32,955 bases of DNA from the IMG/VR virus record IMGVR_UViG_2617271086_000008, positions 1-32,955 of that record. One strand, given 5' to 3'. This document shows positions 1 through 31,817 of this stretch, piece after piece. Position 1 is the stretch's first letter. The number at the start of each line of letters is the position of its first letter. A model generated the notes under the pieces. It had not been told where the DNA came from and did no database searches. It was given only the letters and a program-made list of their open reading frames with translations. The stretch comes from a virus (Duplodnaviria > Heunggongvirae > Uroviricota > Caudoviricetes). Position numbers and translations under genes: made by a program.

Positions 1-984
1 TTATCGAATCGTTAAACCACCCTTTAGTGGGTTTAACGCTACTGCGTTTTGCAGGTAATCAGGCGCAAGGTGCGCATAGGCCATCGTCTGCTGAATGCTC
101 GCATGCCCCAGAATCTGTTGCAGTGCAATTATGTTGCCCCCATTCATCATGAAATGACTTGCGAATGTATGTCGCAGGATATGGGTTGCCTGATTGGGTG
201 GTATATCAGGTTTCACTCTGCGTAAAATCCCGCAAAACTTCTCATAATCAACTTTGAATAATTTGGCACTGGCCTCCTCTTTAACTTTTTTCTCCAGTTC
301 CTCAGAAATCGGCACGGTTCGCTTTTTACCGTTTTTGGTTTTCAGGAAGGTAACCCTGCAATTTGTAATCTGTGCTGGTTTTAGCGTGGCAACTTCCGTC
401 CATCTTCCTCCAGTGCTCAGACATAAAAGCGCGACAAGTAAGTCATCACCAGCCAAAACATTTAACAGTTTTTCGATTTCTGCTTTTTCCAGGAACGTCA
501 TTTCAGGGTTGGCCTCCGTCAGTGGCGGCAGTCCGTGAATTGGGTGTTGCCCGGAAAATTCATCCAGTTGAATTAATTTTGTGAACATGCCGGACAATCG
601 GTATATGTCACGATTTATCGTTGCAGCACTGATGCCATCACGTAGTCGCATGGAGCGATAATCCATCAAAGCCCTTTTGTTCATCCGGCTCACCGGTATA
701 TCACCTATACCGCTGATGGTTTTGAGCAGATGATTAAACTCTTTTGTCCCATGCTCGTGGTTTTGCCCGTGATATTTCCACCAGATGTCGAGCAATTCTG
801 TCAAAGTTCGGCGGTCTGCTCGCTGGCCTGCCCATTCTTTCTGACTGGCATTGGCGATTGTGTATCGCTCAAATGCTACAGCCTCAGCTTTTCTTTCAAA
901 CTTCCTGCGGATGCGTTTTCCGTCGCGACCGCGAGGTCTAATGTCCACTTCATAGCGTCCATCATCGAGCTTCTTAATTGACAT
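1..984 (-). CDS. int: Tyrosine integrase (P2 Int-like)
   Basis: ORF 1..1014; C-terminal catalytic region with HxxR and terminal Y motifs (ATHILRHTFASHF...MAYAHL); likely start at ATG 984 (MSIKKLDDGRYEV, matching the P2 Int N-terminus as recalled) preceded by a GAGGG RBS; stop codon is at window positions 1-3. Confidence 0.9.
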   Translation of the reverse strand: MSIKKLDDGRYEVDIRPRGRDGKRIRRKFERKAEAVAFERYTIANASQKEWAGQRADRRTLTELLDIWWKYHGQNHEHGTKEFNHLLKTISGIGDIPVSRMNKRALMDYRSMRLRDGISAATINRDIYRLSGMFTKLIQLDEFSGQHPIHGLPPLTEANPEMTFLEKAEIEKLLNVLAGDDLLVALLCLSTGGRWTEVATLKPAQITNCRVTFLKTKNGKKRTVPISEELEKKVKEEASAKLFKVDYEKFCGILRRVKPDIPPNQATHILRHTFASHFMMNGGNIIALQQILGHASIQQTMAYAHLAPDYLQNAVALNPLKGGLTIR

Positions 985-1053
985 AAGAAAGCCCTCTGAC
1001 GCTGTATTCACCATCTTGGTAACAAATGGTGAAAATGTAATGTTTATAGAGTG

Positions 1054-1347
1054 TTAACCAGTCTGTTTCCCGGAGTGGTCTGATTCTGTTGGTTTTTGCC
1101 CAATGTGTGCGAGAGCCGGCGCGATCTGACCAGCTTGTGGTGACGTATCACCAGTCATTAACCAGAGCGTATATTTTTTAAATAAAGGTGTATTTGTGAC
1201 TCGCATCACGATGCTGAGACCTGGGTCTTTATGCCCACTTTCGTAATTTTTGACTGTTCCTAGAGCTATCCCGCTAATTTCGCTGAATTTAGCCTGTGTT
1301 AAGCCTTCTGCTTTCCTAATCGCTTTCAGTTTTTCGAATGTCTGCAT
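1054..1347 (-). CDS. C: Immunity repressor C (P2 C-type HTH repressor)
   Basis: 97-aa ORF divergent from cox; N-terminal HTH-like segment (LTQAKFSEISGIALGTVKNYESG); position and size match P2 C. Confidence 0.75.
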   Translation of the reverse strand: MQTFEKLKAIRKAEGLTQAKFSEISGIALGTVKNYESGHKDPGLSIVMRVTNTPLFKKYTLWLMTGDTSPQAGQIAPALAHIGQKPTESDHSGKQTG

Positions 1348-1499
1348 TTGACAGTAACCTATTGGTGACTTATATTCCCGTCAAAAGGTTGTGTATTGGT
1401 GACCTTTTGAGTGTGTTAGCCAGTCCCTAGAAAGGACAGGGGCGACCTAGAAGGGACTGGATCTAATAAGGGTAACACGAAAGCAAAAAGGGCTAATCA
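1348..1499. promoter_or_regulatory. C/cox divergent promoter-operator region (lysis-lysogeny switch)
   Basis: 152-bp gap between divergent C and cox; 10-bp direct repeat tattggtgac at 1360-1369 and 1394-1403; inverted repeat ccagtccct (1420-1428) / agggactgg (1452-1460) containing a cctagaa direct repeat. Confidence 0.5.
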
Positions 1500-1772
1500 A
1501 TGGAAGTCAATGACTATGTGATTCAGTACCCGATTGATGCGGTACATACGGTTAAGTTTGCAGAGTTACTTGGTAAGCCAGAAACGGCTGTAGTCAAGAT
1601 GGTAAAAGAGAATAAATTGCCAGTTATTGAGCTTCGTGATCCAAGTAAGCCGAACGCTCGTGTCGGTGAGAAGTGGGTTTTCATTCCAGAGTTTAATCGC
1701 GCTGTACGTGAGGCGTTTTATAACCGACCGGTTGAACAGCGTGATGCATGGCTTTTGTGGATGGGGTTGTGA
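1500..1772 (+). CDS. cox: Cox-like excisionase/transcriptional regulator
   Basis: 90-aa ORF, first gene of the early operon, divergent from C; size and position match P2 Cox. Confidence 0.7.
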   Translation: MEVNDYVIQYPIDAVHTVKFAELLGKPETAVVKMVKENKLPVIELRDPSKPNARVGEKWVFIPEFNRAVREAFYNRPVEQRDAWLLWMGL

Positions 1773-1774
1773 TT

Positions 1775-1945
1775 ATGAGTGAACCGCGTTGTATTGCTCA
1801 GTTACTGCGTAACGAAAGCCCCAGGGCGATTGACTTCACCATCACCCACGGGAAGGGGCGCAAGGGAATCATTATCCGCACCAAAAAACAGAGTCCGTTA
1901 AAAAAGGCTCTGACCTTTCTGAAAAGCCGGAGGGTCTGGAAATGA
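1775..1945 (+). CDS. Small early protein (P2 orf78-like position)
   Basis: ATG at 1775 two nt after the cox stop; basic 56-aa product; overlaps the next start by 4 nt (ATGA). Confidence 0.4.
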   Translation: MSEPRCIAQLLRNESPRAIDFTITHGKGRKGIIIRTKKQSPLKKALTFLKSRRVWK

Positions 1946-2442
1946 CAGTGATGACACTTAATCTCGTCGAAAAACAGCCAGCAGCTATGCGCCGGATAAT
2001 TGGTAAGCATCTGGCCGTCCCTCGCTGGCAGGAGACATGTGATTATTATAATCACATGATGGAACGTGAACGGCTAACGGTTTGCTTCCATGCGCAGTTA
2101 AAACAACGTCACGCAACGATGCGTTTCGAAGAAATGAACGATGTCGAACGTGAACGGCTGGTTTGTGCAATTGATGAATTGCGTGGGGCATTCTCAAAAC
2201 GCCGTCAGGTCGGTGCAAGTGAGTATGCATATATTAGTTTTTTAACAGTCAGTCAGCGGCGTACTTTATTTATGCATGCCAGATTGACAGAAAAAGAATT
2301 CAACCAGCCATACTGGCGAATTAATGAAGAATCATGTTACTGGCGTGATGCTTTATTCCGTGCATTACGTGAATTATTCAGTCTGTTTGAGTATGCACCG
2401 ACAATTCTGACATCGGTAAAACCAGAGCAATATCTGCATTAA
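1942..2442 (+). CDS. B: Replication protein B-like
   Basis: 166-aa ORF in the position and of the size of P2 gene B. Confidence 0.65.
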   Translation: MTVMTLNLVEKQPAAMRRIIGKHLAVPRWQETCDYYNHMMERERLTVCFHAQLKQRHATMRFEEMNDVERERLVCAIDELRGAFSKRRQVGASEYAYISFLTVSQRRTLFMHARLTEKEFNQPYWRINEESCYWRDALFRALRELFSLFEYAPTILTSVKPEQYLH

Positions 2443-2505
2443 GTAATTAACCAGAGTTTTTAACGCACTTAATTGTGCGGGGCTTCTTTTTGCCTGGAGA
2501 AAGTC

Positions 2506-2730
2506 ATGCATACAGTTTCTGAAAATCAGTGCGGTAAATACGCATTACTGCTGCAACAGGCCAGAACCGAAGCACAGGCCGACGCAGCGACGCGCTTTTC
2601 TTCTCATCTTGACGCCATGATTCGCCACATCACAAAGGCGGAGTTATCCCGCGTAGAGATAGTCGAGCTGCTCAGTCAGGAGTCGGAAAAATTTCACAAT
2701 ATCGGATTGTCCCGCGGGGAGGTGCTTTGA
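2506..2730 (+). CDS. Hypothetical early protein
   Basis: ATG at 2506 preceded by GGAGAAAG; stop overlaps the next start (TGATG). Confidence 0.4.
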
Positions 2731-3032
2731 TGTCCTGTTCTCGTTCAGTTGTATTACTGAATAACGCCTTAAAAATCACCGTTATGAAAAATGGCGATCT
2801 ATCTCTTATTCAACTTGGTCTTGATAAAGAAAAACGCGAAATAACTGAGTCTGTTATCGCGATTTATCAGAACGAATTAAATCTCCTGTCTGATGTGGTC
2901 AATTTACTTGTTAAACGCGCTGTATTTCACAAGCAAATCTCCTCCGTGAATGAACTGACGAAATTAACGACAGAAATTGCCAGCTATTGCGCTGATGAAT
3001 TTAAAAAACTTAACGACAAAAGGAACTGGTAA
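2730..3032 (+). CDS. Hypothetical early protein
   Basis: ATG at 2730 preceded by GGGGAGGTG; AT-rich; translationally coupled to its neighbours. Confidence 0.4.
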   Translation: MSCSRSVVLLNNALKITVMKNGDLSLIQLGLDKEKREITESVIAIYQNELNLLSDVVNLLVKRAVFHKQISSVNELTKLTTEIASYCADEFKKLNDKRNW

Positions 3033-3256
3033 TGCCGGACAACGTAGATTTTATTCAGGAACAACAGGCTGAATTACTGGAGCGTCAGATTAACGCGGCA
3101 AGGGTAAAACATTGCGGAGCTTCTGCGCTGGTTTGCGAAGAGTGTGACGCGCCAATACCTGCTGCCCGTCGTGCGGCTTATCCGTCAGCCACGCGTTGTG
3201 TTTCCTGCCAGTCAGTCTTTGAAGCAAAAAACAAACATTACCGGAGAACGGCATGA
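3032..3256 (+). CDS. TraR/DksA-family C4 zinc-finger protein
   Basis: 74 aa with two Cys pairs (CEECDAP ... CVSCQ) in a C-terminal arrangement typical of phage TraR/DksA-like zinc fingers. Confidence 0.55.
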   Translation: MPDNVDFIQEQQAELLERQINAARVKHCGASALVCEECDAPIPAARRAAYPSATRCVSCQSVFEAKNKHYRRTA

Positions 3257-3528
3257 GTATTCGTATTGAAATTGGCGAACGTTATGTCGTTACCAGTGAC
3301 AGCTTTCAGTTTATTCTCCACGAGAAAAAGAGAGCGGAAAGCGGTAAAAACGCCGGTCAGGAATGGCTGGCGGTGGTTGGTTATTATCCGAAATTAAGCC
3401 AGCTCGTTTCCGGCCTGATGCATCACGATATTCTGACCGGAAGCGCAAAGTCTTTTGCTGATTTAAACGCGCAGGTTGAGCAACTCAGCAGGCGTTGTTC
3501 AGAGGCTTTTGGCTCATATGGCCGTTAA
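3253..3528 (+). CDS. Hypothetical early protein
   Basis: 91-aa ORF overlapping upstream (ATGA) and downstream genes. Confidence 0.4.
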   Translation: MSIRIEIGERYVVTSDSFQFILHEKKRAESGKNAGQEWLAVVGYYPKLSQLVSGLMHHDILTGSAKSFADLNAQVEQLSRRCSEAFGSYGR

Positions 3529-5803
3529 AGCCTCCGGGCGTTTTGTCCCTCCTTCAGCATTTGCTGCAGGCACCGGTAAGGCGTTTACCGGTGCTTATGC
3601 ATGGAACGCGCCACGCGAGGCCGTCGGGCGCGAAAGACCCCTTACACGTGACGAGATGCGTCAGGTGCAAGGTGTTTTATCCACGATTAACCGCCTGCCT
3701 TACTTTTTGCGCTCGCTGTTTACTTCACGCTATGACTACATCCGGCGCAATAAAAGCCCGGTACACGGGTTTTATTTCCTCACATCCACTTTTCAGCGTC
3801 GTTTATGGCCGCGCATTGAGCGTGTGAATCAGCGCCATGAAATGAACACCGACGCGTCGTTACTGTTTCTGGCAGAGCGTGACCACTATGCGCGCCTGCC
3901 GGGAATGAATGACAAGGAGCTGAAAAAGTTTGCTGCCCGTATCTCATCGCAGCTTTTCATGATGTATGAGGAACTCAGCGATGCCTGGGTGGATGCGCAT
4001 GGCGAAAAAGAATCGCTGTTTACGGATGAGGCGCAGGTTCACCTCTATGGTCATGTTGCTGGCGCTGCACGTGCTTTCAATATTTCCCCTCTCTACTGGA
4101 AAAAATACCGTAAAGGGCAGATGACCACGAGGCAGGCATATTCTGCCATTGCCCGTCTGTTTAACGATGAGTGGTGGACTCATCAGCTTAAAGGCCAGCG
4201 TATGCGCTGGCATGAGGCGTTACTGATTGCTGTCGGGGAGGTCAATAAAGACCGTTCACCTTATGCCAGTAAACATGCTATTCGTGATGTGCGTACGCGC
4301 CGTCAGGCAAATCTGGAATTTCTTAAATCGTGTGACCTTGAAAACAGGGAAACCGGCGAACGCATCGACCTTATCAGTAAGGTGATGGGCAGTATTTCTA
4401 ATCCTGAAATTCGCCGGATGGAGCTGATGAACACCATTGCCGGTATTGAGCGTTACGCCGCCGCAGAGGGTGATGTGGGGATGTTTATCACGCTGACCGC
4501 GCCGTCAAAGTATCATCCGACACGTCAGGTCGGAAAAGGCGAAAGTAAAACCGTCCAGCTTAATCACGGCTGGAATGATGAGGCATTTAATCCGAAGGAT
4601 GCGCAGCGTTATCTCTGCCGTATCTGGAGCCTGATGCGCACGGCATTCAAGGATAATGATTTACAGGTCTACGGTTTGCGAGTCGTCGAGCCACACCACG
4701 ACGGAACGCCGCACTGGCATATGATGCTTTTTTGTAATCCACGCCAGCGTAACCAGATTATCGAAATCATGCGTCGCTATGCGCTCAAAGAGGATGGCGA
4801 CGAAAGAGGAGCTGCGCGAAACCGTTTTCAGGCAAAACACCTTAACCGGGGCGGTGCTGCGGGATATATCGCGAAATACATTTCAAAAAACATCGACGGC
4901 TATGCACTGGATGGTCAGCTCGATAACGATACCGGCAGGCCGCTGAAAGACACTGCTGCGGCTGTTACCGCATGGGCGTCAACGTGGCGCATCCCGCAAT
5001 TTAAAACGGTTGGCCTGCCGACAATGGGGGCTTACCGTGAACTACGTAAGTTGCCTCGCGGCGTCAGCATTGCTGATGAGTTTGACGAACGCGTCGAGGC
5101 TGCACGCGCTGCCGCAGACAGTGGCGATTTTGCGCTGTATATCAGCGCGCAGGGCGGGGCAAATGTCCCGCGCGATTGTCAGACTGTCAGGGTCGCCCGT
5201 AGCCCGTCGGATGACGTTAACGAGTATGAGGAAGAAGTCGAGAGAGTGGTCGGCATTTACGCGCCGCATCTCGGCGCGCGTCATATTCATATCACCAGAA
5301 CGACGGACTGGCGCATTGTGCCGAAAGTTCCGGTCGTTGAGCCTTTGACTTTAAAAAGCGGCATCGCCGCGCCTCGGAGTCCTGTCAATAACTGTGGAAA
5401 GCTCACCGGTGGTGATACTTCGTTACCGGCTCCCACGCCTTCTGAGCACGCCGCAGCAGTGCTTAATCTGGTTGATGACGGTGTTATCGAATGGAATGAC
5501 CCGGAGGTCGTGAGGGCGCTCAGAGGTGCATTAAAACACGAACTGAGAACACCAAATCGTCAGCAGAGAAACGGAAGCCCGTTAAAACCACATGAAATAG
5601 CGCCATCGGCCAGACTGACCCGGTCGGAACGAATGCAAATCACCCGTATCCGCGTTGACCTTGCTCAGAACGGTATCAGGCCTCAGCGATGGGAGCTTGA
5701 GGCGCTGGCGCGTGGCGCGACAGTAAATTATGACGGAATAAAATTCACGTATCCGGTCGCTGATGAGTGGCCGGGGTTCTCAAAAGTAATGGAGTGGACA
5801 TAA
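3518..5803 (+). CDS. A: Replication initiation endonuclease A (rolling-circle initiator)
   Basis: Long ORF; probable start ATG 3518 (MAVKASGRF, as in P2 gpA by recollection); HxH-type metal motif (GTPHWHMMLF) and YISKN/YIAKY tyrosine region. Confidence 0.9.
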   Translation: MAVKASGRFVPPSAFAAGTGKAFTGAYAWNAPREAVGRERPLTRDEMRQVQGVLSTINRLPYFLRSLFTSRYDYIRRNKSPVHGFYFLTSTFQRRLWPRIERVNQRHEMNTDASLLFLAERDHYARLPGMNDKELKKFAARISSQLFMMYEELSDAWVDAHGEKESLFTDEAQVHLYGHVAGAARAFNISPLYWKKYRKGQMTTRQAYSAIARLFNDEWWTHQLKGQRMRWHEALLIAVGEVNKDRSPYASKHAIRDVRTRRQANLEFLKSCDLENRETGERIDLISKVMGSISNPEIRRMELMNTIAGIERYAAAEGDVGMFITLTAPSKYHPTRQVGKGESKTVQLNHGWNDEAFNPKDAQRYLCRIWSLMRTAFKDNDLQVYGLRVVEPHHDGTPHWHMMLFCNPRQRNQIIEIMRRYALKEDGDERGAARNRFQAKHLNRGGAAGYIAKYISKNIDGYALDGQLDNDTGRPLKDTAAAVTAWASTWRIPQFKTVGLPTMGAYRELRKLPRGVSIADEFDERVEAARAAADSGDFALYISAQGGANVPRDCQTVRVARSPSDDVNEYEEEVERVVGIYAPHLGARHIHITRTTDWRIVPKVPVVEPLTLKSGIAAPRSPVNNCGKLTGGDTSLPAPTPSEHAAAVLNLVDDGVIEWNDPEVVRALRGALKHELRTPNRQQRNGSPLKPHEIAPSARLTRSERMQITRIRVDLAQNGIRPQRWELEALARGATVNYDGIKFTYPVADEWPGFSKVMEWT

Positions 5804-6252
5804 TGGCAAAAATTCACGAGGTAAAGCTGCACGCAAAATATTTTGACCTTGTACTGGAAGGAAAGAAACGAGCAGAGTTTCGTAAAAATGACCGTAATTA
5901 TGAGTGCGGGGACACGTTGATTTTGCATGAATGGGGGCAGGGGGTGTATACGGGGCGAAAGGTTGAAACCCGGATAACGGATGTTACTGACCTGTCAGAC
6001 TGGATGGAAGGTTATGTCTTGCTAAGTATTGAGCTGCTTAATACAGGCGCATATGAGATTGTGAACTGGAAAGAACTTAGTGAGCGTGGTCTGGTATTCA
6101 GAATTAATCATGACATTATGCATCAGCTCGGCCTTGCTGTTATGTATGAACCAGAGACGGGGATGTCTGGCGGGGCAATGGTTGCCACGGATGGAGCATG
6201 GAACTATTCAGATGAACAGATGGAGCATGCAAAGCAAAATGGGTGGTTTTGA
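5803..6252 (+). CDS. ASCH/PUA-like (DUF3850-like) protein with C-terminal extension
   Basis: Start ATG overlaps the A stop (TAATG); N-terminus MAKIHEVKLHAKYFDLVLEGKKRAEFRKNDRNYECGDTLILHEW resembles the DUF3850/ASCH fold signature. Confidence 0.55.
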   Translation: MAKIHEVKLHAKYFDLVLEGKKRAEFRKNDRNYECGDTLILHEWGQGVYTGRKVETRITDVTDLSDWMEGYVLLSIELLNTGAYEIVNWKELSERGLVFRINHDIMHQLGLAVMYEPETGMSGGAMVATDGAWNYSDEQMEHAKQNGWF

Positions 6253-6254
6253 AA

Positions 6255-6491
6255 ATGCACAGAATACCGGGTGAGATACCGCTGCATAACACTAAAAATA
6301 TCAAGCTGATGGCCATTGTTCACCGTCTACAACAGATTATGGTCAATGAGAATCTGACGCCCGATGAGCTAGTCGGGTGCGCTGAAATTGTCAGGGATAA
6401 TTACGGACGGTTCAACGATATCAGTCGACCGAAAGTTAAGACATATCAACCATATAATATGCTTAAACAACCACCACGCAGGCTTGAGTAA
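6255..6491 (+). CDS. Hypothetical small protein
   Basis: ATG 6255 overlaps the upstream stop (TGAAAATG); no recognisable motif. Confidence 0.35.
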   Translation: MHRIPGEIPLHNTKNIKLMAIVHRLQQIMVNENLTPDELVGCAEIVRDNYGRFNDISRPKVKTYQPYNMLKQPPRRLE

Positions 6492-6699
6492 ACGCCGCTA
6501 GTGCTGAAACTTGCTTTCTGGGCTAGCGGTGTTGAACAACGAGCGTAGTGAGGCGTTAGTTATGTAAAGTTAAAGTAATTTAAAACAGTATATTAGTGGA
6601 AAGGATGTTGAGAGTATTCGGTTACGAGAGGGAATGGATGTATTTACAGAAATTGTTGGATTAATTGTAGTAAAGCTAGGATAGGATAGGCCTTAGGGC

Positions 6700-6792
6700 T
6701 GGATGTGGGGAGCCTTCTTGTAGTTTGCTAAAACGCTCGAGATTTTTGAAGGATACAGTTATACTCTGCCGGAGGATGAATCGGAGACTAAA
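6700..6792 (+). promoter_or_regulatory. Putative promoter/RBS region for the methyltransferase gene
   Basis: Possible -35 tcgaga, 17-nt spacer, -10 tatact about 6742-6770; GGAG RBS 6 nt upstream of ATG 6793. Confidence 0.3.
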
Positions 6793-7830
6793 ATGGCGGT
6801 AAAAGTTGTTGATCTTTTTTGTGGTGCTGGCGGGCTTACTCATGGCTTAAAGCAAGCCGGATTAGATGTAGTCGCTGGTATTGATATAGAGAGTGCATGC
6901 CGGGTTGCTTATGAAAGTAATAACAGTGCGCTTTTTATTGAAAAAGATATTTCTCTGGTGACCAAAGACGAGCTTAACGATCTTTTTGAAGGTGCGCAGG
7001 TCAGGGTGTTGGCTGGTTGTGCGCCGTGCCAACCTTTTTCAAGGTATACGCAAGGGCGCGATAAGAAAAATGATAAAAAGTGGCCTCTTCTTTATGAATT
7101 TGAACGTTTAATTCGAGGGGTTAATCCAGAGATCGTTACAATGGAAAATGTGCCTGATGTAACGAAGCATTCTGTTTATAGTGACTTCTATAATAGTTTA
7201 GAGGCATTGGGTTATCATGTCTGGGCCGGAAAGGTTGAATGTGTAGATTATGGTGTTCCGCAAAATAGAGTAAGGCATGTATTATTGGCATCTAAATTTG
7301 CGCCGCTTTCATTTGTAAAACCAAAAGTAGAAAAGGCGGTGACGGTAAAAGAATGCATTGGCGGACTTCCTCCATTAAAGGCAGGTCAAACGGATCCTGT
7401 TGATCCTTTACATAAAGCAAGTAAATTAAGTGATATAAATCTAAAACGTATTGCTTGCTCTAAACCAGGAGGGACATGGCGAGACTGGCCAGTAGAGTTG
7501 ATTGCATCATGCCACATAAAGAAAAGTGGGCAAGGTTATGCTAGTGTATACGGACGTATGGATTGGGATAAACCAAGTCCTACAATTACTACGCTATGTT
7601 ATGGTTTTGGAAATGGCAGATTTGGTCATCCAGAGCAAAATCGTGCAATTTCTCTGAGAGAGGCTGCATTGTTGCAAACGTTTCCAAAGGATTACGTTTT
7701 TACTGCACCCAATGAGAAAGTATCTATAAAGAATGTTGGTAGGATGATTGGTAATGCAGTACCGGTAAAACTAGGTGAGGTTATAGGTGAGTCAATTATA
7801 ACTCACCTAAAAGAGCACAATATAGTTTAA
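6793..7830 (+). CDS. DNA (cytosine-5)-methyltransferase
   Basis: Motif I DLFCGAGG, motif IV GCAPCQPFS (catalytic PCQ), motif VI ENV, motif VIII QNRVR, motif X GNAV; AT-rich relative to the phage backbone. Confidence 0.9.
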   Translation: MAVKVVDLFCGAGGLTHGLKQAGLDVVAGIDIESACRVAYESNNSALFIEKDISLVTKDELNDLFEGAQVRVLAGCAPCQPFSRYTQGRDKKNDKKWPLLYEFERLIRGVNPEIVTMENVPDVTKHSVYSDFYNSLEALGYHVWAGKVECVDYGVPQNRVRHVLLASKFAPLSFVKPKVEKAVTVKECIGGLPPLKAGQTDPVDPLHKASKLSDINLKRIACSKPGGTWRDWPVELIASCHIKKSGQGYASVYGRMDWDKPSPTITTLCYGFGNGRFGHPEQNRAISLREAALLQTFPKDYVFTAPNEKVSIKNVGRMIGNAVPVKLGEVIGESIITHLKEHNIV

Positions 7831-8558
7831 GCCTGTAGTCTTGATGATCGTATGTATAAGCGATCATCAAGGTATTTTTGTATGTTTTCTAGTATTTCTT
7901 CTAGGTAATGGAAAACTTCATTTTTAAGAAGTTCAAGGTTGTCAATAGACGTTTCTTGACCCTTGTTTAAAAAGGATTCTGAACCATGTGCCAATGCATT
8001 TCTTGCTTTTTTTATGTTTACTAAATTTCCACCATTATGAGTTTTTGAACGATCTGTTTGATAGGAAAAACCATAGATATTAGCAACATCCCTAATTTTC
8101 TGTGCGTCAACATTTCCCGAAAATAGGGGGTTTTTATCTGCTTGAACTTGTTTTTTGTGTTCCTCTAGCCATTTTTTTAGAACTAGTTTTGCTATATCAC
8201 CTTGTGAAAAATCCATGTCACTCACCATATGATGGTCTAATTTTTTTAAGGCAAGCTTTGTTAAACTTTCGCAAATCTTATCGACACAAAGATCATCGCA
8301 CGAATTAAGTTCATTATGTATGTCTTCAATAGCATTAGATATAGTGGCTTCAATTAAGTTATATAATATAATAAACGCATTGGCTTTAAGGATATGCGTC
8401 ATTTCGATATCGATTTCGCGGTGTTTACATTCGCCTGCTGTGCGATCTTTGTACGAGAAAGTTGGTCTCTCATCAATAATGAATTTAACAAAATTAAAAT
8501 ATTTTTCTATATCTTCTTTTCTTTCAGAAAATAAAATTTTGCTGTTCATAATGACCAC
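7827..8558 (-). CDS. HEPN-like protein (R-x4-HG motif), putative RNase/abortive-infection effector
   Basis: 243 aa; C-terminal motif KARNALAHG (R186-x4-H191-G); probable GTG start at 8558 with a GAGGAG RBS that overlaps the stop of the upstream DUF262 gene. Confidence 0.6.
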   Translation of the reverse strand: MVIMNSKILFSERKEDIEKYFNFVKFIIDERPTFSYKDRTAGECKHREIDIEMTHILKANAFIILYNLIEATISNAIEDIHNELNSCDDLCVDKICESLTKLALKKLDHHMVSDMDFSQGDIAKLVLKKWLEEHKKQVQADKNPLFSGNVDAQKIRDVANIYGFSYQTDRSKTHNGGNLVNIKKARNALAHGSESFLNKGQETSIDNLELLKNEVFHYLEEILENIQKYLDDRLYIRSSRLQA

Positions 8559-8564
8559 GGATAG

Positions 8565-9689
8565 TTACTCCTCACTATCATCTAGAACAGTATCTTCGGT
8601 CTGCACACCTAAAAGTTTGTCTCTTACATATTCAATACGTGCTTTTACTTTAGGTTTTGAGTTTGACGCATCAGATCTTGTATGTTTAATAAACTCTTCT
8701 GAGTTTAACCATTCCTCTACCGGTGTTGGTATTATGTTAGAGTTAGTTTTTAAGGCTAAAGTGGAACCGACAGCTAACGCTTCAAAGCGAATTCTTGGTA
8801 CAGTGTTTGCTGTTGCATTCTTTCTGAAACCATAGGGGAAATGTGTTTTGACAAATTCACACATATCTTGAAATTGTGCAGTTAGTTTTTCTTCTTGCTC
8901 AGGACTAAATGACTCATTTCGTTGGTCAAGATATTGGGTTAAGAAAGTATCAACACTTTTTTCAAAGTTAAGATAGTTATCACAATAGGCAAAATATCTA
9001 AGAACCAATTCTGGATATTCTCCACGACTGATTCTGGCATCGTTTAGAGGGCATATTTCCCTAAACAATGGAAACTCTGATAGTCTATTAACAACATCAA
9101 GAAAAGGCCCATCATTACTGCCCTGTCGTTGCTCCATTGTCGTGAGTTTTATTCCACCTGTATTCAATCGATCGAAAATCTCCCTTCTTGCTTCTTCATC
9201 ACATAATTCAGTGAGTTCAATCATTCGAATAGTTTTTCTATCGAATCTAAGCTTACGTGCAGGTGTGAAGTCAGAGTATTTGAATCCGTTGGCTGAAGTT
9301 AACTTTTTTAATCCAGTAAGGGTAAATTTATCATTTAGAAAATGATAAAGTGTTCTAATCCTCTGGCTACCATCAACGATTTCCAATCGCCCATCGTCAT
9401 TTCCGATATCGGCAACAAATACATATGGGATAGGAATATTTAGCAAAAGCGATTCAATGAATCTTGATTTTTGAACATTGCTCCAAACAAATTCCCTTTG
9501 ATAATCAGGTATGTATAGTTCTGCTTGGTCGGTTTCTAATCCTTTCTGAAATTTGTCAACAATGACACTTACAGGAAACTCTCTAATTTGGTGATCCGTT
9601 ATTTTTTGCATGGATTTGATCTGGTTATCCAGGTCAACTTTATCTTCTTCTGTGATCACTTGTTCAGGTTGTCTTGGGACTCTTGCCAT
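8565..9689 (-). CDS. DUF262 (ParB/GmrS-like NTPase) domain protein without HNH/DUF1524
   Basis: Motifs DYQREFVW, IVDGSQRIRT (DGQQR-like) and FDRLNTGGIKL; likely start ATG 9689 with an AAGGAG RBS (ORF extends to 9851). Confidence 0.75.
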   Translation of the reverse strand: MARVPRQPEQVITEEDKVDLDNQIKSMQKITDHQIREFPVSVIVDKFQKGLETDQAELYIPDYQREFVWSNVQKSRFIESLLLNIPIPYVFVADIGNDDGRLEIVDGSQRIRTLYHFLNDKFTLTGLKKLTSANGFKYSDFTPARKLRFDRKTIRMIELTELCDEEARREIFDRLNTGGIKLTTMEQRQGSNDGPFLDVVNRLSEFPLFREICPLNDARISRGEYPELVLRYFAYCDNYLNFEKSVDTFLTQYLDQRNESFSPEQEEKLTAQFQDMCEFVKTHFPYGFRKNATANTVPRIRFEALAVGSTLALKTNSNIIPTPVEEWLNSEEFIKHTRSDASNSKPKVKARIEYVRDKLLGVQTEDTVLDDSEE

Positions 9690-9992
9690 TTGTTTTCTCC
9701 TTATGCTTATTTGCAATAAGTTGCATTTGTTTGCATGCGTAGTTTTATACTGATTTAATCCCACAAGTCCTTTATATGCAAGGGTTAGAGGCTTAAATGC
9801 ACCTGCATTAAAACCGCCTTGTGAAGCGGGCAGGCGAGGCGGGGAAAGCACTGCGCGCTGGCGGTGGTGCTGATTTTATTTTTTCAGCGTCTCAGCGCGT
9901 CGTAATGGCGCTTAGTCTGCCCGTTGAGGCGTTGGTGTGTCTGCGGGGTGTTTTGTGCGGTGGTGAGCGTGTGAGGGCGTGATGACGGGGTG

Positions 9993-10016
9993 TAAAAAAG
10001 CCGCCCGCAGGCGGCG
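9993..10016 (-). terminator. Rho-independent terminator downstream of Q (minus strand)
   Basis: GC stem gccgcc/ggcggc (10000-10015) with cgca loop; A6 run on the plus strand gives a U-tract on the minus strand. Confidence 0.55.
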
Positions 10017-10020
10017 ATGT

Positions 10021-11055
10021 TCAACCGTTGTCAGTGTCCAGTGAGTAGTTTTTAAAGCGGATGACCTCCTGACCGAGCCAGCCGTTTATTTCCCGAATTC
10101 TGTCCTGTAACGGGATAAGCTCATTGCGGACAAAGACCTTTGCCACTTTCTCAATATCACCCAGCGACCCGACGTTCTCCGGCTTGCCGCCCATCAACTG
10201 AAAAGGGATGCGGTGCGCGTCCAGCAGGTCTGCGGCGCTGGCTTTTTTGATATTAAAAAAATCGTCCTTCGTTGCCACTTCACTGAGCGGGATAATTTTA
10301 ATGCCGTCGGCTTTCCCTTGCGGGGCATAGAGAAACAGATTTTTAAAGTTGTTGCGGCCTTTCGACTTCACCATGTTTTCGCGGAGCATTTCGATATCGT
10401 TGCGATCCTGCACGGCATCAGTGACGTACATGATGTATCCGGCATGTGCGCCGTTTTCGTAATACTTGCGGCGGAACAGCGTGGCCGACTCATTCAGCCA
10501 GGCAGAGTTAAGGGCGCTGAGATATTCCGGCAGGCCGTACAGCTCCTGATTAATATCCGGCTCCAGCAGGTGAAACACGGAGCCGGGCGCGAAGGCTGTC
10601 GGCTCGTTGAAGGACGGCACCCACCAGTAAACATCCTCTTCCACGCCACGGCGGGTATATTTTGCCGGTGAGGTTTCCAGTCTGATGACCTTACCGGTGG
10701 TGCTGTAACGCTTTTCCAGAAACGCATTACCGAACACCAGAAAATCCAGCACAAAACGGCTGAAATCCTGCTGGGAAAGCCACGGATGCGGAATAAACGT
10801 TGAAGCCAGAATATTGCGTTTAACGTAAATCGGCGAGCTGTGATGCACGGCAGCACGCAGGCTTTTTGCCAGACCGGTAAAGCTGACCGGTGGCTCATAC
10901 CATCTGCCGTTACTGATGCACTCGACGTAATCCAGAATGTCACGGCGGTCGAGAACCGGCACCGGCTCGCCAAAGGTGAATGCCTCCATTTTCGGTGCGC
11001 TGGCGGTCATTTTTTTTGCCGCAGGTTGCGGTGTTTTCCCTTTTTTCTTGCTCAT
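10021..11055 (-). CDS. Q: Portal protein
   Basis: 344 aa, size and position of P2 gpQ; transcribed with P. Confidence 0.9.
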   Translation of the reverse strand: MSKKKGKTPQPAAKKMTASAPKMEAFTFGEPVPVLDRRDILDYVECISNGRWYEPPVSFTGLAKSLRAAVHHSSPIYVKRNILASTFIPHPWLSQQDFSRFVLDFLVFGNAFLEKRYSTTGKVIRLETSPAKYTRRGVEEDVYWWVPSFNEPTAFAPGSVFHLLEPDINQELYGLPEYLSALNSAWLNESATLFRRKYYENGAHAGYIMYVTDAVQDRNDIEMLRENMVKSKGRNNFKNLFLYAPQGKADGIKIIPLSEVATKDDFFNIKKASAADLLDAHRIPFQLMGGKPENVGSLGDIEKVAKVFVRNELIPLQDRIREINGWLGQEVIRFKNYSLDTDNG

Positions 11056-21156: not shown

Positions 21157-21760
21157 TTCGCGACTGCTGCCGACTGGCTCATCACCGCTTGAAGTTGCCG
21201 CCGCAAAAGCCTGCGCGGAAATTGAAAAAACGCCGGTCAGTATTCGTGAGCTGTGGAACCCGGATACCTGCCCGGCAAATCTGCTGCCGTGGCTGGCGTG
21301 GTCATTTTCGGTTGACCGCTGGGATGATAAGTGGCCGGAAGCGACAAAACGCGCTGTTATCCGCGATGCGTATTTCATTCACTGTCATAAAGGCACTATA
21401 GGTGCAATCCGGCGTGTGGTGGAGCCGCTCGGCTATCTGATTGAGGTGAGGGAGTGGTGGCAGCTCAACGAGGAGCCGGGGACGTTCCGTATCGTTGTTG
21501 GCGTGCTTGAGCAGGGTATTACCGAAGAAATGTATCAGGAGCTGGAGCGCCTCGTTGCTGATGCAAAACCGGCGAGCCGCCATCTTACGGGACTGGCTAT
21601 CAGTTTAAGTACAACCGGCAACATTTTTGCCGGTGCGGGATGCTATCACGGTGACGCCCTGACGGTTTATCCCTACACCCCGGAGGCCATTATTGTCGGA
21701 GGGGATTATTTCCCGGCCTCGGCCATTCATTTAATTGATAACCTGAGAGTAAACGCATGA
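21149..21760 (+). CDS. I: Baseplate/tail protein I
   Basis: P2 gpI position; exact start uncertain (ORF gives 203 aa). Confidence 0.8.
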   Translation: MSDSRLLPTGSSPLEVAAAKACAEIEKTPVSIRELWNPDTCPANLLPWLAWSFSVDRWDDKWPEATKRAVIRDAYFIHCHKGTIGAIRRVVEPLGYLIEVREWWQLNEEPGTFRIVVGVLEQGITEEMYQELERLVADAKPASRHLTGLAISLSTTGNIFAGAGCYHGDALTVYPYTPEAIIVGGDYFPASAIHLIDNLRVNA

Positions 21761-23052
21761 CAGTGAAATACTACGCCATTCTGACTAATCAGGGCGCAGC
21801 ACGGCTGGCTAACGCGACGATGCTCGGCAGTAAGCTGAATCTGACGCAAATGGCCGTTGGTGATGCGAATGGTGTCTTGCCGACACCAGACCCGGCACAG
21901 ACAAAACTGATTAACCAGAAACGCATCGCGCCGCTGAATCTTCTGAGTGTTGACCCGAACAACCAGAGCCAGATTATTGCGGAGCAAATCATCCCTGAGA
22001 ACGAGGGCGGATTCTGGATCCGTGAGATTGGGCTTTATGATGATGAAGGCGTACTCATTGCGGTGGCGAACTGCCCGGAAACGTACAAACCGCAGTTGCA
22101 GGAAGGCAGTGGTCGTACCCAGACTATCCGCATGATTCTTGTTGTCACGAATACCGAAGCTATCACGCTGAAAATCGACCCGTCGGTGGTACTGGCGACC
22201 CGTAAATACGTGGATGATGAAGTCCTGGAATTAAGGCTGTATGTGGATGACCAGATGAGAAACCACATTGCCGCACAGGATCCTCATACCCAGTATGCGC
22301 AGAAACATAATCCGACATTTACCGGAGAACCAAAAGCGCCGACGCCTGCCGCAGGAAATAACACCACGCGGATTGCGACCACTGCGTTTGTACAGGCCGC
22401 TATTACCGCTCTGATTAACGGTGCGCCTGACACGCTGGACACACTGAAAGAAATTGCCGCGGCCATTAACAATGACCCGAAATTCAGCACCACCATTAAC
22501 AATGCGCTGTCAGGTAAGCAGCCACTGGATGAGACGCTGACTCATTTGAGTGGAAAGGATGTTGCCGGTCTTCTCGCATACCTTGGTTTGGGAGAAACGA
22601 TAAATAAAGCCTCCGGAGCTATGCAGAAATCGGCTAATGGATCTGATATTTCTGATGTATCAGCCTTCCGAAATGCGCTCCAGTTAGGGACCGCTGCAAC
22701 ACGAGATGTTGGAGCAGATAATGCCTCGAAGTTACTGGATTTAGACAGCTTCAGGTCAATGATGTCAGGTAATGGCTACATCTACATTCCATGCATTGCG
22801 ACGACAGGAAACCCGGTGAAACTTATGTTGCAGTGGGGAACGGTGGCAACACAAAAGGGAGCTGATGCTGGATATGCCTTACCATTTGCTTTTCCCTATG
22901 CAGGCTTGTTTGCGACCGGAAACCGTGGAACATCTGGCTACAATGCCGCGATGAATGTGCGTATTGCCAGCAGAACGCATATCAGTATTCAGAACTGGTC
23001 GCCATCCGGAGAGGGCACCGAAGATTGTTGTTTTATCGCGCTGGGGTATTAA
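21757..23052 (+). CDS. H: Tail fibre protein H (constant N-terminus plus currently expressed variable C-terminus)
   Basis: 431 aa; the constant/variable junction at the LGLGE codons coincides with the inversion crossover site. Confidence 0.85.
   Translation: MTVKYYAILTNQGAARLANATMLGSKLNLTQMAVGDANGVLPTPDPAQTKLINQKRIAPLNLLSVDPNNQSQIIAEQIIPENEGGFWIREIGLYDDEGVLIAVANCPETYKPQLQEGSGRTQTIRMILVVTNTEAITLKIDPSVVLATRKYVDDEVLELRLYVDDQMRNHIAAQDPHTQYAQKHNPTFTGEPKAPTPAAGNNTTRIATTAFVQAAITALINGAPDTLDTLKEIAAAINNDPKFSTTINNALSGKQPLDETLTHLSGKDVAGLLAYLGLGETINKASGAMQKSANGSDISDVSAFRNALQLGTAATRDVGADNASKLLDLDSFRSMMSGNGYIYIPCIATTGNPVKLMLQWGTVATQKGADAGYALPFAFPYAGLFATGNRGTSGYNAAMNVRIASRTHISIQNWSPSGEGTEDCCFIALGY
22571..22596. 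repeat. Invertase crossover site (left), inside gene H
   Basis: TTCTCGCATACC-TT-GGTTTGGGAGAA; the 14-bp core ttggtttgggagaa (22583-22596) is the exact reverse complement of 24480-24493. Confidence 0.7.
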
Positions 23053-23054
23053 GA

Positions 23055-23471
23055 ATGAATAAATTTTATAAAGGCTCTTTCTATCCGGAAGCACTAAAAG
23101 AGGTATATATCAGCGCCGGTTCATGGCCTGAAAATGGCGTTGATGTTGATGATGAAACAATGGCAATTTACACAGGCGTAGCGCCACAAGGCAAAACGCT
23201 GGGGGCTGATAAAAATGGTAATCCTGCGTGGATTGATATCCCGCCACTCTCCGCTGAACAACAGATTATTCAGGCTGAACAGAAAAGAACGGTATTGCGT
23301 TCTATGGCTGATAAGGAAATAGTCTGGAGACAGGATGCTTTTGATGCGGAAATCGCGACGGCAGAAGAAACCGCCGCGTTATCTGAATGGAAAAAATACC
23401 GGGTCTTGCTGATGCGCGTTGATACATCAAATCCCGTCTGGCCTACGCCTCCGGGGGAGCAGGCCAATTGA
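23055..23471 (+). CDS. G: Tail fibre assembly protein (current orientation)
   Basis: ATG 23055 immediately after the H stop; 138 aa. Confidence 0.75.
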   Translation: MNKFYKGSFYPEALKEVYISAGSWPENGVDVDDETMAIYTGVAPQGKTLGADKNGNPAWIDIPPLSAEQQIIQAEQKRTVLRSMADKEIVWRQDAFDAEIATAEETAALSEWKKYRVLLMRVDTSNPVWPTPPGEQAN

Positions 23472-24036
23472 TATCCGGCGCGGTGCTGGTATCTGTTGCC
23501 GTCACCGCGTCAATGTAATCCAGCACAGCGTTAAGCCGGGTTGTTTCTGCCTGCGTCAGTTTCCGCCCGGCCTGTAATTTCAGCTGAATCAGACTAATGG
23601 AAGCCATTGCAGCATCAATCAGCGACTGGCGCTGTGCTTCTGCCGCGTCTACTGCGGCGCTATGCTGTGCCTCGGTATCCGTCACCCATTTCTCACCATC
23701 CCATTTATCGTATGGCGTTAACGGTGAAAGCGTGACATAACCGTCTTTGATGGCACCGATATAATCCACTGTAACAGCTGCACCATTTTCTGTTGAGTAA
23801 ACAGTCTCATTGCGATGGTCTTCTTCATGGATCCATCCCTTACCCGTAAATACTGCCACTTTTCCAGGAATGTTTTCGCCCGGGTCAATACCAGTGGAAC
23901 AGGCGGGCATACTTACACCAGTATTAATATATTCATCAGACCAGCCCGTATATTCATACGTTACTTCATCATAATAAAAACAACGCATATCACCCGGCAC
24001 TGTAGCCAGTCCATTTTCATCAAAAACAGGTTTCAT
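23443..24036 (-). CDS. Alternative tail fibre assembly protein (inverted cassette)
   Basis: 197-aa minus-strand ORF inside the invertible segment; 3' end overlaps G convergently. Confidence 0.7.
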   Translation of the reverse strand: MKPVFDENGLATVPGDMRCFYYDEVTYEYTGWSDEYINTGVSMPACSTGIDPGENIPGKVAVFTGKGWIHEEDHRNETVYSTENGAAVTVDYIGAIKDGYVTLSPLTPYDKWDGEKWVTDTEAQHSAAVDAAEAQRQSLIDAAMASISLIQLKLQAGRKLTQAETTRLNAVLDYIDAVTATDTSTAPDINWPAPPEA

Positions 24037-24493
24037 TATTTAGCCCTCACCAGAAAGTTAAATGCGATGTTACGTGGTCTGACGGCAATAAAATTCACAC
24101 CATCACCCACTGAATTACTGGTGTAATGGTATCGAGAGAAACCCGGCTCGTGTGCTGATATTCCATCGTGATTAGCAATCGAATGGCCGGAGCCCTCTGG
24201 ATAATTACCGCCAAATTGCGATAAAGATGTTGCTGCCTGCCAGCTTAATAATGCTCGTCCACTGTCCGCCCCTCGCCCATCATCCCAGATACGAATGAAA
24301 TCACCGCGGGCTTCAGGCAATACCAGCGAAGGAAACACTTTCGCCAGCACAGGGTAATCAGTGGCAGAGAATTTCGCGCCGTTGAACTTCAAAAACACCA
24401 TGCTGGACCAGCTGTCGATTACGGTATCTGGCATTGCGGCGGACGGCCAGAAGAACGGAACGCCAATAGCTGGAACACCTTCTCCCAAACCAA
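24036..24493 (-). other. Promoterless alternative tail-fibre C-terminal cassette (Hv')
   Basis: Minus-strand ORF whose 5' end encodes GLGE at the right crossover site; inversion would fuse it in frame to the H constant region. Confidence 0.7.
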
Positions 24494-24505
24494 CGTTTAA
24501 GAAAA
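24480..24505. repeat. Invertase crossover site (right)
   Basis: TTCTCCCAAACC-AA-CGTTTAAGAAAA; imperfect palindrome of the Hin/Gin half-site type, inverted relative to 22571-22596. Confidence 0.7.
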
Positions 24506-24560
24506 TGCAGAGATTACGGCTAACTGGCATCATCCCCGGTTTTTATTCAGGGGATCCATC

Positions 24561-25154
24561 ATGCTTATTGGCTATGTCCGCGTGTCAACAAATGACCAGA
24601 ATACGGAATTGCAGCGTAACGCGCTGGAGTGCGCAGGATGTGAGCTGATTTTTGAGGATAAAATCAGCGGCACGAAGTCCGACCGACCGGGACTGAAAAA
24701 ACTGCTCAGGACATTATCGGAGGGGGATACACTGGTGGTCTGGAAGCTGGACCGGCTGGGGCGTAGTATGCGGCATCTGGTCATTCTGGTTGAGGAACTG
24801 CGCGAACGCGGCGTTAATTTTCGCAGCCTGACAGATGCTATTGATACCAGCACGCCGATGGGGCGTTTTTTCTTTCATGTGATGGGTGCCCTGGCTGAAA
24901 TGGAGCGAGAACTCATTGTCGAGCGGACACGCGCCGGACTGGAAGCGGCCAGAGCCAAAGGTCGTATTGGTGGCAGACGACCGAAACTCACCGCGAGTGA
25001 GTGGGAGCAGGTCGGACGGTTGCTGGCTGCGGGGGAATCTCGTCAACGTGTAGCGCTGATTTTTGATATTGGCCTGTCCACGCTCTATAAAAAATTCCCC
25101 TCATCAGCGACAAAGAATAAATTGTGTCATCCCTTAGCCAACCGGGACAAATAG
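24561..25154 (+). CDS. Serine DNA invertase (Pin/Gin/Cin/Hin family)
   Basis: N-terminus MLIGYVRVSTNDQ with catalytic Ser; resolvase core (VWKLDRLGRS) and C-terminal HTH; very similar to e14 Pin as recalled. Confidence 0.9.
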   Translation: MLIGYVRVSTNDQNTELQRNALECAGCELIFEDKISGTKSDRPGLKKLLRTLSEGDTLVVWKLDRLGRSMRHLVILVEELRERGVNFRSLTDAIDTSTPMGRFFFHVMGALAEMERELIVERTRAGLEAARAKGRIGGRRPKLTASEWEQVGRLLAAGESRQRVALIFDIGLSTLYKKFPSSATKNKLCHPLANRDK

Positions 25155-31517: not shown

Positions 31518-31598
31518 TGTGTTTTATTTATCTATTTGTTTTATAAGGGTAAATTAACTAAAATGGCACCATCAACAAAACCGGAAGAGGTGCTCGCG

Positions 31599-31817
31599 AT
31601 GTTTCATTGTCCTTTATGCCAGAATGCCGCACATGCGCGTACAAGCCGCTATATTACTGACACGACAAAAGAGCGTTATCACCAGTGTCAGAACGTGAAT
31701 TGCAGCGCCACGTTCATCACTTATGAGTCGGTACAGCGATACATCGTGAAGCCGGGAGAAGTCCACGCCGTAAGGCCGCACCCATTGCCGTCAGGGCAGC
31801 AAATTATGTGGATGTGA
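31599..31817 (+). CDS. ogr: Ogr late-gene transcription activator (zinc finger)
   Basis: 72 aa from ATG 31599 (MFHCPLCQNAAH ... CQNVNCSATF), a Cys4 zinc finger as in P2 Ogr; GGAAGAGG RBS. Confidence 0.85.
   Translation: MFHCPLCQNAAHARTSRYITDTTKERYHQCQNVNCSATFITYESVQRYIVKPGEVHAVRPHPLPSGQQIMWM

Follow-up and report, generated by a model that had tools for sequence, protein, structure and literature searches.

A C5-methyltransferase, DUF262 sensor and HEPN effector triad as candidate defence cargo between genes A and Q of a P2-like prophage

An operon in which a MAE_28990 HEPN gene is accompanied by a ParB gene and a DNA methylase was noted by comparative genomics (Anantharaman et al. 2013, Biol Direct, Table 1; PMC3710099), and the same arrangement is listed in the P2 gpA-gpQ hotspot by Rousset et al. 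(2022, Table S5A; PMC9122126). When the literature was searched for this triad, no experimental paper, mechanism or system name was found. Among related systems, PD-T4-2 (DUF262 plus HEPN) is a validated anti-T4 system in its native strain (Vassallo et al. 2022; PMC9519451), and the NsnA protein of Menshen (NsnABC) has the architecture ParB-DUF262 plus ParBDB (PMC12065111). Here we describe a triad of a C5-cytosine DNA methyltransferase (MTase), a DUF262 sensor and a HEPN effector from the window, by which we mean the whole stretch of 32,955 nt that was analyzed (IMG/VR virus record IMGVR_UViG_2617271086_000008, positions 1 to 32,955). The sequence of the window is identical to the chromosome of Escherichia coli 1002W03 (NZ_CP147056.1). 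It contains a P2-like prophage in the order int, C, cox, B, A, cargo slot, cos, Q, P and late genes, and its right end consists of ogr (31536-31817) followed by a host cation-efflux gene.

The cargo slot of this prophage holds the three genes listed below, which very probably constitute a single unit. Anti-phage defence is their probable function. More tentatively, and at not quite an even chance, we propose that the cargo is one horizontally acquired defence module organized like a restriction-modification (R-M) system, with the endonuclease replaced by a sensor and a ribonuclease (RNase).

6793-7830, plus strand: C5-cytosine DNA methyltransferase (345 aa), modification component (Pfam DNA_methylase 1.3e-54; TIGR00675 dcm)
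7827-8549, minus strand: HEPN nuclease of the MAE_28990 family, predicted RNase effector (240 aa; 243 aa if translation starts at the GTG at 8558)
8565-9689, minus strand: DUF262/ParB-type nucleoside triphosphatase (NTPase; DUF262/GmrSD_N) of 374 aa whose C-terminal domain is helical; predicted to sense DNA or its modification

A first-pass annotation of the sequence had named five genes in this part of the window (ASCH/DUF3850-like, small open reading frame (ORF), C5-MTase, HEPN and DUF262), and all five domain calls were borne out by domain search. The MTase motifs FCGAGG, PC79Q, E118NV, QNR and GNAVP are all conserved. When solved structures were searched, MTase residues 221-336 gave their best matches to eukaryotic DNMT1 catalytic domains (E about 1e-19) and the N-terminal half to M.HaeIII. 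The HEPN protein scored 75.5 bits with PF18737 (cut-off 26.8) and also matched PF18735 (4.2e-7); its Rx4-6H motif is intact and R183...H188 is invariant. The sensor has an N-terminal DUF262 NTPase domain with DGxQR and ends at 374 aa with the helical domain, and no DUF1524 match and no nuclease domain was found in it. PDB sequence searches with the sensor and the HEPN protein returned nothing, and fold comparison was therefore used instead. By this comparison the effector is a HEPN toxin fold, and the sensor resembles BrxU and SspE, its closest structures, with only about 150 residues aligning to BrxU. The catalytic motifs of all three proteins are intact.

The genes are tightly packed. The MTase and HEPN genes are convergent, with stop codons overlapping at 7827-7830, and the terminator scan placed the following element inside the 3' end of the HEPN gene, where it is the probable terminator of the MTase gene.

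7838-7873, plus strand: hairpin with a 14-bp stem, followed by a T-run

The sensor and HEPN genes lie on the same strand with a gap of 15 nt. The HEPN start is ambiguous between the RefSeq ATG at 8549 (240 aa) and a GTG at 8558 (243 aa), and several database homologues are 243 aa long. The GTG sits 9 nt past a GAGGAG within the end of the DUF262 gene (site 8549-8567), a layout which suggests that translation of the sensor and effector may be coupled.

The sequence aligns with the diverged alleles of E. coli 181.1 and Peduovirus P24B2 from 6726 on (67 nt upstream of the MTase gene) and through all three genes, so the triad moves as a unit between two P2 contexts. In addition, eight of eight HEPN homologues (26-60% identity) are located within the same triad of DNA_methylase, GmrSD_N and HEPN_MAE_28990. 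These eight occur in a lambdoid and a P22-like prophage, in a type I R-M island, in a further element linked to an integrase and at plain sites on chromosomes.

A survey of one genome per species, in which gene presence was scored with purpose-built hidden Markov models, comprised 80 loci from Cyanobacteria, Bacteroidota, Planctomycetota, Acidobacteriota, Verrucomicrobiota, Proteobacteria and Leptospira. The DUF262 gene is directly upstream of HEPN and co-directional with it in 78 of the 80 loci, the other two being cut by contig ends. An adjacent MTase was observed in 42 of the 68 decidable loci (upstream and co-directional in 23, downstream and convergent in 19); it is absent despite enough flank in 26 of the 80 and undecidable in 12. 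When a tree was drawn from sensor plus effector, gene order followed the clades and the window grouped with the gammaproteobacterial convergent loci. The MTase-less loci represent essentially one derived, mostly cyanobacterial clade, with no C5-MTase within about 6 kb. DUF262 and HEPN distances are correlated (r = 0.83). The MTase is the most conserved of the triad across phyla (51-58% identity; sensor 41-51%, HEPN 28-37%). In its variable target-recognition region (171-290), identity to triad MTases from other phyla is 58-63%, which argues for one fixed specificity; loci L013 and L015, with replaced MTases, are the exceptions.

In the P2 slot of E. coli, 16 of 5,426 complete genomes carry the triad, in three diverged alleles: four genomes have the window type, three the 181.1/P24B2 type and nine the E601/GN04592 type. 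Between alleles, the proteins are 72-81% (MTase), 45-71% (sensor) and 30-61% (HEPN) identical, and all three alleles are AT-rich (GC content 0.36-0.37) with their motifs kept. Among 50,697 phage records, the DUF262-HEPN pair was present only in P24B2 and nine Moraxella prophage records.

The lineage of the MTase is common to the triad and a classical R-M system. The same P2 slot in E. coli EC21Z-144 contains an MTase 59% identical to that of the window (61% in the variable region), which is convergent with a "BbrUII/HgiDII family restriction enzyme", a single 652-aa endonuclease. Since the MTase in the slot of phage Wphi is only 33% identical, we concluded that one MTase lineage serves either a classical endonuclease or a DUF262 plus HEPN pair. 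We also considered the layout of Wphi (5612-8782) and NC_070904 (5605-8643), whose slots hold a C5-MTase and two convergent genes, as an analogue of the triad. It was rejected, as these loci are PD-lambda-5-like (the last gene matches PD-Lambda-5_A at ~1e-24) with an unrelated MTase. As a separate observation, NC_070904 is labelled "Peduovirus P2" and bears this PD-lambda-5-like cargo at the site of tin and old in the P2 reference genome, and hence it is not canonical P2.

The slot itself lies between A and Q beside cos. This is the tin/old position, as had been recognized at first pass, and the gpA-gpQ region is a documented defence hotspot (Rousset et al. 2022, PMC9122126; Vassallo et al. 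2022, PMC9519451). Its flanks are the following genes.

3518-5803, plus strand: gene A (replication endonuclease), left conserved flank (RefSeq annotation of NZ_CP147056.1; homology to P2-like relatives)
10021-11055, minus strand: gene Q (portal), right conserved flank (RefSeq annotation)

In the related loci L004-L008 and in EC21Z-144 (L107), the flanks are 90-96% identical and the cargo is different. The slot contents among relatives include PDC-S31/DUF2971, ImmA/IrrE, PD-lambda-5-like and HgiDII-type R-M genes, among others.

When the region was compared with eight related P2-like loci using BLASTN, backbone homology on the left extended through A, the DUF3850 gene and the small ORF, ending at 6559-6561 in Wphi, NC_070904 and strain ES5, at 6539 in strain 602687 and at 6421 in strain M45. 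On the right, it returned at 9797/9798 in all loci bearing different cargo. Judged from these alignments, the exchanged cargo is about 6560-9796 (3.2 kb), which matches the mean hotspot size given by Rousset et al. (2022; PMC9122126). The first-pass annotation had drawn an AT-rich cargo island at 5803-9990. Alignment moved both of its borders, to breakpoints at ~6560 and 9797, and its left bound corresponds to that of the slot and not to a cargo breakpoint.

The AT-richness of the stretch is genuine and far exceeds chance. The GC content of 5803-9990 is 0.396, compared with 0.551 in the late region and 0.454 in the early region (1-3475); that of 6560-9796 is 0.369, and every 3.2-kb window outside the island is at or above 0.451. 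The shift is strongest in the three cargo genes, where GC content at third codon positions (GC3) is 0.25-0.28 (MTase 0.283, HEPN 0.249, DUF262 0.272), versus 0.64-0.71 in Q, P, O and N and 0.37-0.47 in the early genes. The backbone described earlier as GC-rich is so in A and the late genes, to which the contrast is limited, and not in the early region. There, the DUF5405 gene (2727-3032), a conserved P2-family gene, has the lowest GC content of the backbone (0.363), near the cargo value. Low GC content by itself is therefore no proof of cargo in this phage. The right border is abrupt, with GC content rising from 0.34 to 0.59 in about 100 nt, and the left border is stepwise. Of the "sharp compositional shift" that had been taken to indicate acquired modules, the foreign composition and the right border stand; the left border is not sharp, and a single co-inherited system takes the place of several modules. 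The cargo is compositionally foreign and probably horizontally acquired.

Two of the five genes that had been called non-P2 belong to the P2 family.

5803-6252, plus strand: orf91 homologue (DUF3850/ASCH + DUF7415), backbone or semi-variable gene outside the exchanged cargo
6255-6491, plus strand: orf92-like small ORF (78 aa), backbone (phrog_11386 1.7e-44)

The first of these begins at the stop codon of gene A and is a fusion of an ASCH/DUF3850 domain (RNA-binding type) with DUF7415 (DUF3850 3.4e-18, ASCH 4e-11, DUF7415 4.5e-14; phrog_1812 1.3e-79). In Wphi, the annotation of the DUF3850 gene reads "similar to P2 orf91"; the small ORF behind it, for which no Pfam match was found, corresponds to orf92. 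The two genes are kept together in loci L004-L009 and L106 and recur beside five unrelated cargos, with about 90-94% DNA identity to P2-like phages bearing unrelated cargo. Their composition is that of the early backbone (GC content 0.448 for the pair and 0.456 for the orf91 homologue; GC3 about 0.46). The orf91 gene is present in most P2-like relatives examined and absent in 181.1, P24B2 and DETEC-E601; some P2-like phages lack both genes, the cargo coming straight after A. By sequence comparison, then, orf91 and orf92 are not foreign to P2 and form a semi-variable part of the slot. The working definition of Rousset et al. (2022; PMC9122126), which takes in everything between gpA and gpQ, counts orf91 as hotspot content, and their catalogue includes both genes.

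The non-coding parts of the slot were assigned as follows.

6560-6725, no strand: junction spacer from the backbone breakpoint (~6560) to the start of the mobile module (6726), no Rfam match
6726-6792, plus strand: MTase upstream region, which moves with the module (homology from 6726 where the triad directly follows A)
9690-9796, minus strand: upstream region of the DUF262-HEPN operon, with an AGGAG ribosome-binding site before the ATG; GC content 0.336, the last AT-rich cargo segment
9797-10020, no strand: backbone cos region, then the Q terminator; homology with all P2-like relatives resumes here
10000-10015, minus strand: terminator (terminator scan)

The GC content of 9797-9990 is 0.598. 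The 19-nt cohesive-end sequence of P2 (GGCGAGGCGGGGAAAGCAC) was found at 9833-9851, and linear phage records stop exactly at the equivalent of 9832, so the cargo ends 36 nt before the cos cut. Upstream of the MTase, a sigma-70-like site at 6737-6765 is a weak, consensus-level match only; promoter-like sites in the region were not enriched over shuffles, and promoter assignments are therefore tentative. No tRNA was found by a scan of the window, and an Rfam scan of 5700-10100 (E ≤ 1) gave no match. The repeat search yielded only short two-copy families. One of its products, a 12-nt inverted repeat (7826-7837, TTTAAGCCTGTA; 9786-9797, TAGAGGCTTAAA; 11 of 12 positions complementary), encloses precisely the HEPN-DUF262 operon, with one arm at the HEPN stop and the other at the right cargo breakpoint. 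By chance such a repeat is rare (5 of 2000 segment pairs drawn at random). However, the remaining two E. coli alleles do not share it, and for this reason we did not build upon it.

A further dip in GC content at ~23.4-24.5 kb corresponds to an invertible tail-fibre cassette within 21757-25154, at the position of the second hotspot of P2, which suggests host-range switching.

21757-23052, plus strand: tail fibre H
23025-23471, plus strand: tail-fibre assembly gene
23443-24036, minus strand: alternative assembly gene, in opposite orientation
24036-24533, minus strand: alternative fibre C-terminus
24561-25154, plus strand: Gin/Cin-type DNA invertase (Resolvase + HTH_7, phrog_125)

If the triad acts in the manner of an R-M system, the C5-MTase would label host and prophage DNA as self at one fixed motif, and the DUF262/ParB-type NTPase, with its putative DNA-binding helical domain and no nuclease domain, would read the modification status of DNA. 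On meeting unmarked DNA, the sensor would activate its probably translationally linked partner, the HEPN protein, which by the precedent of its family may cut RNA. Arrest or death of the infected cell (abortive infection) would follow, and competing phages would be excluded. A trigger of this kind can be proposed only with some hesitation. The complete scheme, in which 5-methylcytosine (m5C) is the self mark and serves as a kin label in P2-like phages, the ParB-type NTPase senses unmarked DNA and HEPN cuts RNA, is possible, if doubtful. In favour of an R-M-like defence module are the location in a validated defence hotspot with conserved flanks, the linkage and joint movement of the three genes, the conserved MTase lineage shared with a classical R-M system, the intact motifs and the folds, the defence given by the relative PD-T4-2 and the way in which the loci decay. 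Of the triad loci that do not lie at a contig end, 33 have all three genes intact. In five others the MTase is whole and the sensor or effector damaged; the opposite state was not seen, and in one locus all three genes are broken. This 5:0 direction is as dependence of the R-M kind would predict, the numbers being small. As the three E. coli alleles keep the same MTase recognition region while the effectors have diverged to 30% identity, lysogens of one allele would, under the complete scheme, tolerate phages carrying another.

Several observations weigh against gating by methylation. The decay asymmetry has p about 0.1 after gene length is allowed for. Both sensor and effector are intact in 19 of the 26 MTase-less loci, and methylation as self-protection is therefore not obligatory in the wider family; likewise, PD-T4-2 works and is tolerated in K-12 without any MTase (PMC9519451). 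Characterized DUF262 proteins (GmrSD, BrxU and Dazbog) respond to modified and not to unmodified DNA (PMC10952713). The distances of the MTase are only weakly correlated with those of the sensor and effector (r = 0.21-0.23; sensor 0.21). We attribute this to a plateau near 53% identity and to the replacements in L013 and L015 rather than to free swapping, and it is no proof of co-evolution. In Peduovirus P24B2 (NC_049387, 1851-2898), the triad MTase gene has a single frameshift close to residue 226, beside an intact sensor and an intact HEPN. The two halves of this MTase match the unbroken MTase of E. coli 181.1 at 100% identity. The frameshift is either a very recent inactivation, which would speak against an essential protective role, or a sequencing error. 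Finally, GTCGAC, an HgiDII-like site and by lineage a candidate target of the MTase, is not significantly depleted in the window (3 sites versus 7.5 ± 2.9 expected).

The main rival explanation, which computation cannot separate from the R-M-like one, is that the DUF262 sensor works like a type IV enzyme. It would recognize modified foreign DNA (e.g. the hydroxymethylcytosine or glucosyl-hydroxymethylcytosine of T-even phages) and activate HEPN, and the MTase would be functionally separate, for example protecting P2 DNA against restriction by the host, or labelling self such that m5C of the host goes unnoticed by the sensor. Such a mechanism would suit the protection against T4 by the MTase-free PD-T4-2 (PMC9519451), the large MTase-less clade, the structural resemblance of the sensor to BrxU and SspE and the linking of the Dazbog DUF262 protein to methylated-DNA sensing (PMC10952713); moreover, Rousset et al. 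call a Vibrio locus with DUF262 and HEPN_MAE_28990 "Type-IV restriction". However, a passenger MTase would not be expected to stay linked across phyla, in two gene orders, as one lineage and with a conserved recognition region. Nor does a separate role agree with the overlapping MTase and HEPN stop codons and the putative MTase terminator inside the HEPN gene, with the transfer of the whole triad between P2 contexts, or with a lineage that otherwise provides the modification enzyme of classical R-M. We consider type IV-like action rather unlikely.

Improbable, in our view, is that the cargo is primarily an addiction device, stabilizing the prophage or the module by post-segregational killing, in which loss of methylation would free the HEPN toxin and any anti-phage effect would be secondary. 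The R-M-like organization and the decayed loci that keep the MTase and lose the sensor or effector would agree with it, and HEPN proteins are common toxins of toxin-antitoxin systems, but the module is found in hotspots and islands of defence genes, it has relatives with validated defence activity and MTase-less dyads persist with both sensor and effector intact. Addiction and defence roles are, besides, not mutually exclusive. It is very improbable that the MTase is an RNA-modifying enzyme of the DNMT2 type (tRNA m5C), protecting the RNA target of HEPN until phage interference exposes it to cleavage. On the one hand, HEPN defence nucleases often cut tRNA (DARNA preprint), and a PDB search gave a full-length alignment of the MTase with DNMT2 (E about 1e-11). 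On the other, the DNA MTases HaeIII and DNMT1 match better, the MTase is 59-61% identical to that of an HgiDII-type DNA R-M system and it is paired with a ParB/DUF262 DNA-binding protein.

That the slot is a hotspot is textbook knowledge, and the value of the locus lies in its cargo, which combines a cytosine methylase, a nuclease-less DUF262 sensor and a HEPN effector. The module is widespread (many phyla and at least four prophage types) and rare in E. coli. If the methylase provides a self mark, the module would link classical R-M systems with abortive-infection RNases and offer a tractable case for what DUF262 sensors read in PD-T4-2, Menshen and Dazbog; an RNA-cleaving output could work even on phages with DNA that withstands endonucleases. 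In E. coli P2-like prophages the module is compact (3.2 kb) and presumably has its native promoters, and the strain background is easy for genetics.

When the triad is set against known systems, the operon of Anantharaman et al. (2013) has all of the features found here: a MAE_28990 HEPN gene, an adjacent ParB/DUF262 gene and an adjacent DNA methylase. PD-T4-2 shares the two co-directional genes, a DUF262/ParB-type gene followed by a HEPN gene of the RiboL-PSP/MAE_28990 clade. The comparison with it was made through PADLOC models and Pfam clade. The PADLOC model PD-T4-2_A matches the sensor of the window at 2.5e-34 (model positions 56-356 of 363). For the HEPN protein, no PD-T4-2_B match was found by PADLOC at E ≤ 10, where only an insignificant match to PDC-M49B appeared; PD-T4-2B is PF18735/PF18737 by HHpred, and kinship is thus at the level of the Pfam clade only. 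PD-T4-2 also differs in having no MTase (a 1.8-kb clone) and a HEPN protein of about 165 aa versus 240 aa here. We did not assign the triad to PD-T4-2, as component B went undetected and PD-T4-2 is a two-gene system free of an MTase. By analogy, the triad plausibly works like PD-T4-2 at the sensor-effector step.

The sensor scores higher on NsnA than on PD-T4-2_A, matching NsnA over its full length (26-377 of 385; E 2.9e-55). However, the locus is not Menshen, since the NsnB ABC-ATPase and the NsnC effector are missing (no ATPase gene was found anywhere in 5803-10020) and a HEPN gene downstream plus an MTase are found instead. The GmrSD, BrxU and SspE family comprises type IV and phosphorothioate-sensing nucleases. 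The triad has DUF262 with DGxQR and lacks the fused DUF1524 (His-Me/HNH) nuclease domain, for which reason membership in GmrSD/BrxU was rejected; its effector is a separate HEPN protein, and an MTase is attached, whereas the GmrSD/BrxU type IV enzymes have no cognate MTase. Compared with type II R-M, all C5-MTase motifs are present in the predicted MTase but no restriction endonuclease domain is found in the cargo. The BbrUII/HgiDII-type R-M system of EC21Z-144 shares the slot, the convergent layout and the MTase lineage, and differs in having an endonuclease in place of the DUF262 sensor and HEPN. The tin and old genes of P2 and other gpA-gpQ cargo share the cos-adjacent slot and the character of accessory phage-exclusion cargo, although the proteins are unrelated. 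PADLOC 2.0 has no model for the HEPN protein of the triad and would therefore not call it. The triad is already catalogued (2013, 2022), and it is a rare, predicted variant of the DUF262-HEPN kind of defence, one with a cognate methylase.

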